This document shows positions 41,886 to 44,889 of a DNA stretch of 64,000 nucleotides, one piece after another; the first letter of the stretch is position 1; the number at the start of each line of letters is the position of its first letter. Both the position numbers and the translations under genes were made by a program. The notes under the pieces were generated by a model, which was not told where the DNA came from, did no database searches, and saw nothing but the letters and a program-made list of their open reading frames with translations. Location: positions 64,001 to 128,000 of IMG/VR virus record IMGVR_UViG_3300043427_001127, one strand, 5' to 3'. Source of the stretch: a virus.

Positions 41886-42233
41886 ATGAATCCAAGTTCA
41901 GCGAAAGCGAAGGGTCGCCGTCTGCAACAGTGGGTGAGAGATAAACTCATTGAGATGCTTGAGGTTCACCCAGAAGATATTGAATCTCGTAGCATGGGTG
42001 CTGGTGGCGAAGACCTTATCATGGCTCGTGCTGCTCGCCAGAAGTTTCCACATAGTATTGAATGTAAGAATGTAGAGAAACTAAATATCTGGGAAGCCTA
42101 TGAGCAGGCAACTGCCAATCGTGGTGACTATGAGCCTATTGTTGTTATCAAAAAGAATGGCAAGAAACCACTGGTAGTCGTAGACGCAGAGTATTATATT
42201 CAACTATTCGGAGACAAAGATGGCAAAGATTGA
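41886..42233 (+). CDS. Holliday-junction-resolvase-like PD-(D/E)xK nuclease
   Basis: KAKGRRLQ, GEDL, IECKN. Confidence 0.8.
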   Translation: MNPSSAKAKGRRLQQWVRDKLIEMLEVHPEDIESRSMGAGGEDLIMARAARQKFPHSIECKNVEKLNIWEAYEQATANRGDYEPIVVIKKNGKKPLVVVDAEYYIQLFGDKDGKD

Positions 42234-42915
42234 TTTACACAACTTCTTCAAACACTTTGACGAGAAGAATCCAAAGCACGTTGCTGCTGTAGAGCAACTT
42301 GAGGTTGACCTCAAGGATTCTCCACTCATGGAAGACTCAGCAAACTGGGTTAAAATCTATAGAACTCAACCAGAGAAACCAAAATCATCAATCCTTGATG
42401 TGCCCTATTTTCCACAGACAGATAACTATAGAGATGCTAACCGCACCTGTAACTCATCTGCCTGTGCTATGGTGTTAGAATACTTCAAACCAGGCACACT
42501 CAAAGGAGCGAAAGGCGATGATGCTTACGTTCAAAAAGTATTTGCAATCGGTGACTCAACTGACCATGTGGTTCAGACCCGTGTGTTGGCGTCTTATGGC
42601 ATTAAGTCACACTTTAGTTATGGTCTTTCTTTTGCTGACCTTGACCGTGAGCTTGCTGCTGGGAGACCCGTTGTTATTGGCATCCTCCATCGTGGTCCTC
42701 TATCTAATCCTATTGGTGGGCACATGGTTGTAGTCATCGGCAAGACCCCCGCAGGCGATTACGTCGTCAACGACCCCTACGGCAGTCTCAACGATGGTTA
42801 CACAGGCGCTGTGAGCAACGGTAAGGGCGCAGTCTACAAGCGTTCAGAACTCGCTCGTAGGTGGTGTCCTGCAGGCAACGATGGATGGGGCAGAATCTTT
42901 GATGCAAAAAAGTGA
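42220..42915 (+). CDS. C39-like cysteine peptidase (putative peptidoglycan hydrolase)
   Basis: VPYFPQ, TCNSSACAM (Cys), GGHMVV (His), NDPYG (Asp). Confidence 0.85.
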   Translation: MAKIDLHNFFKHFDEKNPKHVAAVEQLEVDLKDSPLMEDSANWVKIYRTQPEKPKSSILDVPYFPQTDNYRDANRTCNSSACAMVLEYFKPGTLKGAKGDDAYVQKVFAIGDSTDHVVQTRVLASYGIKSHFSYGLSFADLDRELAAGRPVVIGILHRGPLSNPIGGHMVVVIGKTPAGDYVVNDPYGSLNDGYTGAVSNGKGAVYKRSELARRWCPAGNDGWGRIFDAKK

Positions 42916-42960
42916 CACCCCTCATCTCTATAGATGATGGTCTGCCAGCGGGGGGTATCA
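42906..42960 (+). promoter_or_regulatory. candidate -1 programmed ribosomal frameshift signal
   Basis: In-frame A_AAA_AAG (42906-12) directly before TGA, followed by a branched stem-loop; -1 frame is the lysozyme ORF. Confidence 0.7.
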
Positions 42961-43400
42961 GACTTATCAAAGAGTTTGAAGGATGCCATTTGTATGCATA
43001 CAATGACCCTCTCACTGGTGGATTACCTATTACTATAGGATGGGGAAGTACTAGAGATTTTAACGGTAAACCATTCAAACTAGGTGCTACTATTACTCAG
43101 TTTCAGGCAGATCAACTTCTGTATGAGCAACTGAAGAAAGAGTTTCTACCTAAACTATCTAAGATTCCTTATTGGAGCGAGATGAATGACAATCAAAGAG
43201 GGGCTTTACTTAGCTTTGGGTATAATCTTGGTGGAGATTTCTATGGTAGTAGCGACTTCTATACTATTACACGCATCCTAAGAGAGCGTAAATGGAATGA
43301 AGTGCCTAAGGTGCTGGAAATGTATCGTAATCCTGGCAGCAATGTAGAGGCAGGACTACTGAGACGTAGAAAAGCAGAGGGTAAACTCTGGTCAACATGA
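42912..43400 (+). CDS. GH24 phage lysozyme (endolysin)
   Basis: IKEFEG...AYND...TIGWG catalytic E/D/T, ALLSFGYNLG, GLLRRRKAE. Confidence 0.92.
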   Translation: MTPLISIDDGLPAGGIRLIKEFEGCHLYAYNDPLTGGLPITIGWGSTRDFNGKPFKLGATITQFQADQLLYEQLKKEFLPKLSKIPYWSEMNDNQRGALLSFGYNLGGDFYGSSDFYTITRILRERKWNEVPKVLEMYRNPGSNVEAGLLRRRKAEGKLWST

Positions 43401-43733
43401 ATAAGGTTCGGCAATACCTTCATTCATCATCCATTCATTGATTGTGACTGAATCACCTGCAAGATAAAGAGTGCCAAGTATTCTTCCATACTTGTCCTCT
43501 TTTGTGGTTTCAATGATCCACTTACCTTCACGGGATAGTTGTTCTTCTAACCATACCTTTGCTGCTAGACCTCTTTCCTTCTCTGCTAAATCTTTAGTTC
43601 TAGTTTCAGCAGTATTAATACCTTTAAGACGGACTCTTTGTGATATCGTAATACCAAATCCTAAATCAATATCCAAATCAACTGTGTCTCCATCAACGAC
43701 TCGGTTGATTTTTTTTACTTTGTAAGTATACAT
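43392..43733 (-). CDS. thermonuclease (SNase-like)
   Basis: VVDGDT, RVRLKGINTAE, DKYGRILG. Confidence 0.88.
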   Translation of the reverse strand: MYTYKVKKINRVVDGDTVDLDIDLGFGITISQRVRLKGINTAETRTKDLAEKERGLAAKVWLEEQLSREGKWIIETTKEDKYGRILGTLYLAGDSVTINEWMMNEGIAEPYSC

Positions 43734-44526: not shown

Positions 44527-44889
44527 ATGCTTCTTAAAACACTTTCTATTCTCGCCATTGCCGCTGCAGGACTAGCACCCCTTCAAGCAAAGGCAGCGAG
44601 CGGATGTTCCCTCGCATCACATTATGGAGTTGGTGACGGATATCATGGGCAGACGACTGCAAACGGCGAAAGATACAATGCTTATGGCAACACAACAGCA
44701 CACAGATGGCTTCCTTTCGGAACTAGATTGAAGGTTACAAATCAGCGAAATGGTAGGTCAGTCATCGTGCGAGTAAATGATCGCGGTCCTTTCGTAGGTG
44801 GAAGGAGCCTTGATTTGTCTTATGGTGCATTCTCTTCTATTGCTTCCCCAGGTCAAGGCGTCGCAAGCGTCTGCTACACAAGGGTTTGA
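44527..44889 (+). CDS. rlpA: RlpA-like double-psi beta-barrel lytic transglycosylase with signal peptide
   Basis: ASHYG, TANGERY, TAHRWLPFGT, VRVNDRGPF, LDLS. Confidence 0.92.
   Translation: MLLKTLSILAIAAAGLAPLQAKAASGCSLASHYGVGDGYHGQTTANGERYNAYGNTTAHRWLPFGTRLKVTNQRNGRSVIVRVNDRGPFVGGRSLDLSYGAFSSIASPGQGVASVCYTRV

Follow-up and report, generated by a model that had tools for sequence, protein, structure and literature searches.

We propose that the peptidase-lysozyme locus of the window analyzed here (the whole 64,000-nucleotide (nt) stretch at positions 64,001 to 128,000 of IMG/VR virus record IMGVR_UViG_3300043427_001127) is a programmed -1 ribosomal frameshift cassette of the dnaX/IS3 type, a reading that comparison of related loci makes very probable. 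At this locus an open reading frame (ORF) for a C39-like cysteine peptidase is overlapped in the -1 frame by an ORF for a GH24 lysozyme, and most likely the phage of the window, Synechococcus phage S-PM2 and dozens of uncultured relatives would each produce two proteins from it, a short peptidase and a long peptidase-lysozyme. The window belongs to the 171,625-bp genome (39% GC) of a T4-like cyanomyovirus, whose nearest isolate is S-PM2, with 75.7% nucleotide identity across 42220-43400. That ribosomes actually slip at this site, how efficiently they do so and what parts the downstream stem and the stop codon play are matters that we infer from the comparisons set out below. The features of the locus, with coordinates given as positions in the window and lengths of protein in amino acids (aa), are as follows.

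42210..42213, + strand: GGAG Shine-Dalgarno sequence, 6 nt 5' of the peptidase ATG (sequence reading)
42220..42915, + strand: peptidase 0-frame ORF, 231 aa, the predicted short product (N-terminal module plus Peptidase_C39_2)
42220-42363, + strand: N-terminal helical module of about 48 aa, within the peptidase ORF
42394-42780, + strand: Peptidase_C39_2 domain, aa 59-187 (Pfam match)
42900..42902, + strand: -1-frame TGA that closes the lysozyme frame on its 5' side (sequence reading)
42906..42912, + strand: slippery heptamer A_AAA_AAG, in phase with the peptidase frame (sequence reading)
42913..42915, + strand: 0-frame stop TGA, immediately 3' of the heptamer (sequence reading)
42917..42956, + strand: downstream stem-loop, 4 nt past the heptamer, with a variable interior (RNA folding)
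42912..43400, + strand: -1-frame lysozyme ORF, 162 codons (linker of about 19 aa, then GH24 domain at aa 20-156)
42220..43400, + strand: predicted trans-frame product, 393 aa (frame 0 at 42220-42912, then frame -1 at 42912-43397)

The peptidase ORF ends with GCA (42904-42906), AAA (42907-42909), AAG (42910-42912) and TGA (42913-42915), which bears out the claim of an earlier, sequence-only reading of this DNA that the heptamer is in frame and abuts the stop. The same reading had placed the lysozyme ORF exactly in the -1 frame and had seen no Shine-Dalgarno sequence at its nominal GTG start, and this too is correct: GGAG precedes the peptidase ATG, and nothing resembling it lies 5' of GTG 42912, where the upstream sequence is ATCTTTGATGCAAAAAAG. 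Because the -1 frame is shut by the TGA at 42900-42902, any shift must fall within 42903-42915, 13 nt that are essentially the heptamer and the stop. G42912 and the TGA stop together form a GTG, which would be read as Val after a slip or could be a start codon. In-phase copies of A_AAA_AAG number 10 in the ORFs of at least 100 aa in the 171.6-kb genome, and the copy at 42906-42912 is the only one to adjoin a stop. The heptamer alone is unremarkable, and its weight comes from its position and above all from its conservation in relatives.

In the mechanism that we envisage, ribosomes on the peptidase mRNA would reach GCA AAA AAG with the stop codon next, and a fraction of them would slip back one base on A_AAA_AAG, with tRNA-Lys re-pairing with AAA. 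The slipped ribosomes would decode G42912-U-G as Val, pass a short flexible linker and enter the GH24 lysozyme, and the slip may be aided by the stem-loop a few nt downstream and perhaps also by the adjacent stop. The outputs would be a 231-aa protein, consisting of the N-terminal module and the C39-like cysteine peptidase, and a 393-aa protein with the same parts plus the lysozyme. In the predicted trans-frame product G42912 is read twice (231 + 162 = 393 aa, about 44 kDa), and its junction is ...FDAKK/VTPLISIDDGLPAGGIRLIKEFEG, where the slash marks the change of frame. The computed length agrees with the two-domain product of about 393 aa that had been proposed from the sequence alone, and the product is colinear with natural fusions of the two domains.

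How widespread is this arrangement? A lysozyme-based scan of IMG/VR gave 80 loci, with isolates in addition, each of which was classed by the position and phase of both genes. The peptidase is followed by the lysozyme in a -1 overlap at 64 loci, 39 of which (35 distinct junction sequences) have A_AAA_AAG in phase; T_TTT_TTT occurs in 1 of the 64 (S-CAM7), and the remaining 24 have no heptamer, with an ATG in an ATGA overlap in every one (24/24). On the lysozyme tree the frameshift arrangement falls in two large clades plus outliers. A divergent lineage from IMG/VR (L106:1440-1660 and L107) has CCA AAA AAG in phase and, in the -1 frame, a lysozyme without a start codon, and there the 0 frame continues over the lysozyme for about 70 codons before its stop. 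At the S-CAM7 junction (L007:1495-1520, NC_031927) the sequence is GTT TTT TTT CCA CAG TAG, in which T_TTT_TTT lies in phase within a run of eight T; the lysozyme in the -1 frame is again start-less, and the annotated "lysin" is shortened to 90 aa. The same T8 run was found in none of the IMG/VR relatives, and the S-CAM7 site could be a second kind of slip site, a site of transcriptional slippage or a recent frameshift mutation.

The sequence-only reading had rested its case on the heptamer and the -1 phase, and both are conserved in the homologs, the heptamer at the level of its synonymous positions. Before Lys-Lys the 35 distinct junctions encode different residues (A in 16, V in 17, E and T in 1 each), yet the codon of that residue ends in A in 35/35, and Lys-Lys itself is written AAA then AAG in 35/35. 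The wobble positions of flanking conserved codons are well mixed across the same 35 junctions, and the background usage in the same genes is 66% AAA and 34% AAG for Lys, with A at 34% of third positions. Since these wobble bases are invariant, and since in-frame fusions of the two domains use other Lys codons, we conclude that the constraint acts on the nucleotides, and does so where a change of frame is needed. In 30 of the 35 distinct junctions the 0-frame stop is the codon next to the heptamer, and in the other five it comes one codon later. Those 30 stops are TAG in 25 cases, TAA in three and TGA in two, whereas TAG makes up only 14 of the 120 stops (12%) of long ORFs in the genome of the window. 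Either selection favors the Val-Glu/Asp that results in the -1 frame, or slippage is sensitive to which stop codon follows.

A second line of evidence comes from lysozyme frames that have no start codon. At 21 of the heptamer loci, S-PM2 included, the lysozyme frame lacks any ATG, GTG or TTG from its upstream stop to the catalytic Glu. The S-PM2 junction reads GCA AAA AAG TAA, so its junction codon is GTA. Are these frames translated at all? Pairwise differences among the start-less frames at codon positions 1, 2 and 3 are 0.25, 0.14 and 0.46 (19 distinct loci), and the Glu...Asp...Thr motif is kept in 19/19 of these; such a pattern is characteristic of a frame that is translated and under selection. 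In S-PM2 (NC_006820; L001:2187-2196 and 2466-2684) the GenBank "putative lysin", S-PM2p157, is a 72-aa C-terminal fragment that lacks the half with the catalytic Glu, and the full lysozyme frame opens, with no start codon, at the heptamer of S-PM2p156. The trans-frame protein predicted for S-PM2 has 394 aa, with the junction ...FDAKK-VTSSTSR.

Natural in-frame fusions, whose possible existence the sequence-only reading had raised, were found among the relatives. A second scan yielded the clade of Synechococcus phage ACG-2014f, in which both domains are fused in frame, and 19 fusions were sampled. Over its full length the predicted 393-aa product can be aligned with natural fusions of 401-405 aa, to which it is 61-67% identical, and the ACG-2014f fusion (405 aa) has the same parts in the same order. 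No heptamer is present in 12 of the 19, in which the equivalent Lys-Lys is written AAG AAG or AAG AAA; as the fusions encode the two lysines by other codons, the amino acids do not force the heptamer. Two fusions, L027 and L036, nest within a frameshift clade on the lysozyme tree, and their DNA has one extra nucleotide just past the heptamer relative to that of frameshift-type relatives. The linker of these two, KK-S/P-DSSTSNE...YDIPEKGVELIKEFEG, resembles the one that the trans-frame product of frameshift-type relatives would have, KK-V-DNSTPSA..YDVPVKGVELIKEFEG. A further variant is found in S-CREM1 (L002:1459-2640, OP535465), a 393-aa protein with the domains in reverse order, the lysozyme first and the peptidase last (compare phrog_10051), from which it follows that this pair of domains has been joined in both orientations.

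Some of the fusions (L027:1455-1540, L036:1455-1540 and L004:2025-2075, as well as the ACG-2014f group) still have A_AAA_AAG with a hairpin downstream of it, and in these a TGA lies one codon into the -1 frame (KKV-stop or KKA-stop), where slippage would yield a peptidase-only product, as in the dnaX gene of E. coli. We rejected such a use of the heptamer as a general rule for in-frame fusions because 12 of the 19 have none, and for the same reason the heptamer in the others may be a relic. It is conceivable, although we think it rather unlikely, that the frameshift is a device for setting a product ratio that has been kept in both gene topologies, and not only a means of expressing a start-less domain. 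If this were true, slippage would give the peptidase-only form in the fusions and the fusion form in the window, and both proteins would be needed; they might assemble via their common N-terminal module, and their ratio, and hence the timing of lysis, might be tied to the translational state of the host.

Both domains encoded at the locus match known families. The peptidase ORF matches Peptidase_C39_2 (PF13529) over the full profile (positions 1-143) with 50.4 bits against a cut-off of 24, and the lysozyme ORF matches Phage_lysozyme (PF00959) with 78.9 bits against a cut-off of 22.3. The consensus of the peptidase family keeps a Cys in RTCNSS and a His in GGHM, which are probably catalytic, and the GH24 motif FEG-x7-D-x8-TIG is present in the lysozyme of the window, where the catalytic E...D...T lies in EFEGCHLYAYNDPLTGGLPITIG. 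The 405-position profile phrog_3617 spans both ORFs of the window colinearly, its positions 2-235 matching the peptidase and 243-404 the lysozyme. A search of the peptidase sequence against solved structures gave no match. In a structure search with a model of the natural fusion L027 the middle domain matched the fold of a C39-like peptidase (3erv), and the C-terminal domain of the modeled fusion matched GH24 phage endolysins (9kbq, 6et6 and 2anv). The AF2 model of a natural fusion has two domains and a disordered linker at residues 239-248, which is the place where the RNA stem is encoded. Both the short and the long protein presumably have the cyanobacterial cell wall as their target at lysis and are putative endolysins.

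The N-terminal module of the peptidase (about 48 aa, helical, MAKIDLHNFFK..NPKHVAAVEQLE..WVKIYR) matches no Pfam family, and it can be followed through the different gene arrangements. In phages in which the two genes are separated the stand-alone lysozymes bear their own copy of it, with 54-56% identity (DSL-LC03 and L080); its positions are 42220-42363 in the window, L006:1583-1730 and L080:1294-1440. Lysozymes of the ATGA class have another N-terminal extension of 50 aa, for which BLASTP gave no match to the peptidase module and hhalign a probability of 22%. The lysozyme of the window has no such module and starts straight at the linker; it would gain the module only via the peptidase.

Could the lysozyme simply be a separate gene that is translationally coupled to the peptidase, with re-initiation at GTG 42912 after termination at TGA 42913-42915 and a heptamer that merely encodes Lys-Lys? 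A GTGA overlap is indeed present in the window, the 24 relatives with an ATGA overlap have a true ATG there, and an ATG lies one codon downstream in some heptamer loci (S-SRM01, L047, L056 and L059). Several observations nonetheless make coupling an improbable explanation. GTG 42912 lacks a Shine-Dalgarno sequence, and the TAG or TAA stops that follow the heptamer in most junctions (25/30 and 3/30) turn the junction codon into GTA, which is not a start. Translation by re-initiation only, which the sequence-only reading had named as the rival that could overturn its proposal, is impossible in the 21 relatives, S-PM2 among them, in which no start codon precedes the catalytic Glu. Furthermore, coding does not account for the invariance of the heptamer wobble bases, the in-frame fusions write the two lysines with other codons, and lysozymes that are translated independently have an extra N-terminal module or extension, whereas that of the window has none. 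Re-initiation may occur in the window in addition to frameshifting, and the comparisons argue that it would not do so instead of frameshifting across the clade.

If the frameshift reading is right, a structure that stimulates slippage might be expected about 5-9 nt downstream of the heptamer, and the sequence-only reading had described a branched one, an outer stem enclosing two hairpins. The outer stem stands and is in fact longer than was claimed, with 7 bp formed between 42917-42923 and 42950-42956 at pair probabilities of 0.81-0.99. The inner hairpins are not part of the preferred fold: the branched structure has a folding energy of -12.8 kcal/mol versus a minimum free energy (MFE) of -16.8 kcal/mol, and is thus 4 kcal/mol worse, and its inner pairs, with probabilities of 0.08-0.21, represent a minor alternative. 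The loop sequence GGUCUG (42939-42944) could pair with CAGACU (42959-42964), which lies 2 nt past the stem, over 6 bp that include one G-U; such pairing would form an H-type pseudoknot, which is unsupported by the relatives. On the 5' side the sole G-rich element is TGGGG, about 16 nt upstream, and it encodes a conserved G-W-G, so its conservation is uninformative about a stimulator like a Shine-Dalgarno sequence.

Folding predicts stems that start 2-9 nt past the heptamer in almost every heptamer locus. We ruled out a single consensus structure for the 35 junctions, because the 3' arms lie in registers that differ by whole codons between families, and the stem families were analyzed separately. 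Stems of 10-14 bp that start 3-8 nt past the heptamer occur in at least three families of unrelated sequence (5' arm and 3' arm: CTCTACTCC and GGAGTAGAG; CAACAYCACA and TGTGGTGTTG; GCCAACTAA and TTAGTTGGC), each with two to three compensatory pairs. As for covarying stems in homologs, also raised from the sequence alone, the position of the stem is kept while its sequence is replaced, with compensatory pairs within each family, and the stem of the window has no covariation of its own. Unrelated stem sequences in different registers at the same distance lead to the conclusion that the structure has been rebuilt repeatedly at a fixed spacing from the slip site, inside the linker. The MFE of the 60 nt past the heptamer, ranked against all windows of the same locus, has a median percentile of 0.10 and is at or below 0.05 in 13 of the 35; folding energy alone is a weak argument.

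Another way to reach the lysozyme would be transcriptional slippage, in which RNA polymerase adds one A in the run of six and a subpopulation of mRNAs encodes an in-frame fusion. In its favor, one A added to this homopolymer would lead to the same protein, a T8 run is found at the equivalent junction of S-CAM7, and dnaX of Thermus makes use of transcriptional slippage (PMC5009743). Slippage of this kind needs no fixed phase, no terminal G and no hairpin, and yet 35/35 junctions have the same phase, 35/35 have G and not a longer run of A at position 7, and stems persist 3-8 nt past the heptamer. The run itself has only six A (seven in L010) and is shorter than the runs known to slip efficiently. 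These arguments are indirect, and on their strength transcriptional slippage is disfavored and would seem very unlikely. That the locus reflects an artifact or decay (a frameshift mutation or homopolymer error in one fused gene, or a lysozyme pseudogene) is scarcely credible, even though in-frame fusions exist and L027 and L036 are one nucleotide apart from frameshift-type relatives just past the heptamer, because the same -1 arrangement recurs in 39 loci (35 distinct) from isolates and metagenomes of independent origin, the lysozyme frame is uninterrupted and evolves under purifying selection, and the 0-frame stop directly follows the heptamer in 30/35.

Several points weigh against a programmed frameshift. 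The related loci are phylogenetically non-independent, and the heptamer class is defined by having the heptamer. The TGA stop of the window, like that of L019, creates a GTG at the junction, so that the lysozyme of these two could also be initiated separately. The stem-loop of the window is not statistically exceptional (z = -1.0 versus shuffles), and its stem is common to no close relative and is without covariation support of its own. Where a locus combines the heptamer with an ATG start (S-SRM01, L047, L056 and L086), its downstream structure is weak, which suggests that the signal can decay. Finally, A_AAA_AAG shifts more than any other heptamer tested in E. coli, which is attributed to the sole tRNA-Lys of that bacterium (Atkins et al., 2016, PMC5009743). 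Its shiftiness hinges on a single tRNA-Lys(UUU) in the host, and of the 16 tRNAs that the phage genome encodes none is for Lys.

Two neighbors of the locus may be mentioned. On the opposite strand a homolog of staphylococcal nuclease (43392-43733, - strand) overlaps the lysozyme stop by 9 nt. Further downstream, 44527-44889 (+ strand) encodes an RlpA-like secreted lipoprotein with a DPBB domain, as judged by its resemblance to annotations in S-SZBM1 and S-PM2, which is possibly another wall-active protein.

What would a frameshift at this locus mean? Its mechanism would be classical, of the dnaX/IS3 type, and its use in a lysis gene is without a record that we found. Full-text literature searches returned no report of a frameshift in an endolysin or a cyanophage lysin, and the 2016 review of recoding mentions no lysin, lysozyme or cyanophage case (PMC5009743). 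We rejected one candidate for a prior report, PMC6832245, in which the motif occurs only in a primer. If our reading is correct, lysis enzymes join the few classes of phage genes in which a programmed frameshift is conserved, and the reading corrects the annotation of S-PM2, in which the catalytic half of the 72-aa "putative lysin" would be reachable only through the shift. It would also explain why many cyanomyovirus genomes seem to lack a complete lysozyme gene. Moreover, the relatives would offer a natural series in which to follow the origin, drift and loss of a frameshift signal, from the frameshift form through a fusion one nucleotide away and the ATGA pair to separated genes that each have the module. 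Phages of this kind lyse marine and freshwater Synechococcus, a process of ecological importance, and the enzyme that carries it out merits a correct gene model.

The locus can be compared with several known systems. Closest in its parts are the natural cyanophage fusions (ACG-2014f, phrog_3617), which have the N-terminal module, the C39-like peptidase and the GH24 lysozyme in the same order as the window but in one uninterrupted ORF. Conserved -1 frameshifts in double-stranded DNA phages include those of the tail assembly chaperone (lambda G/GT) and of the T7 capsid protein (10A/10B). These resemble the window in that a phage -1 frameshift near the end of a gene gives a second, C-terminally extended product, although they use other slippery sequences, concern structural or assembly proteins and add no catalytic domain. 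In the IS3 family of insertion sequences (IS911, IS150) A_AAA_AAG lies near the end of orfA, a downstream structure stimulates the shift, the downstream -1 ORF usually has no start of its own, and the products are the upstream protein alone (OrfA) and a fusion (OrfAB), of which the former regulates the latter. The window has the heptamer at the corresponding place in its first ORF, a second ORF in the -1 frame and a predicted pair of products, the upstream protein alone and a fusion, whereas the IS3 product is the transposase of a mobile element and not a pair of enzymes. The dnaX gene of E. coli (tau/gamma) has, like the predicted cassette of the window, A_AAA_AAG read by tRNA-Lys, a stem-loop a few nt downstream and products with a common N-terminal part. 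An upstream stimulator like a Shine-Dalgarno sequence also belongs to the E. coli cassette and is not demonstrable in the window. In addition, frameshifting in E. coli makes the short product, and the gene belongs to a replication clamp loader, not to a phage lysis enzyme. In some bacteria the dnaX arrangement is reversed, such that the long product is made by frameshifting and the 0-frame stop comes directly after the shift site (PMC5009743), and the predicted cassette of the window resembles this arrangement in both respects.

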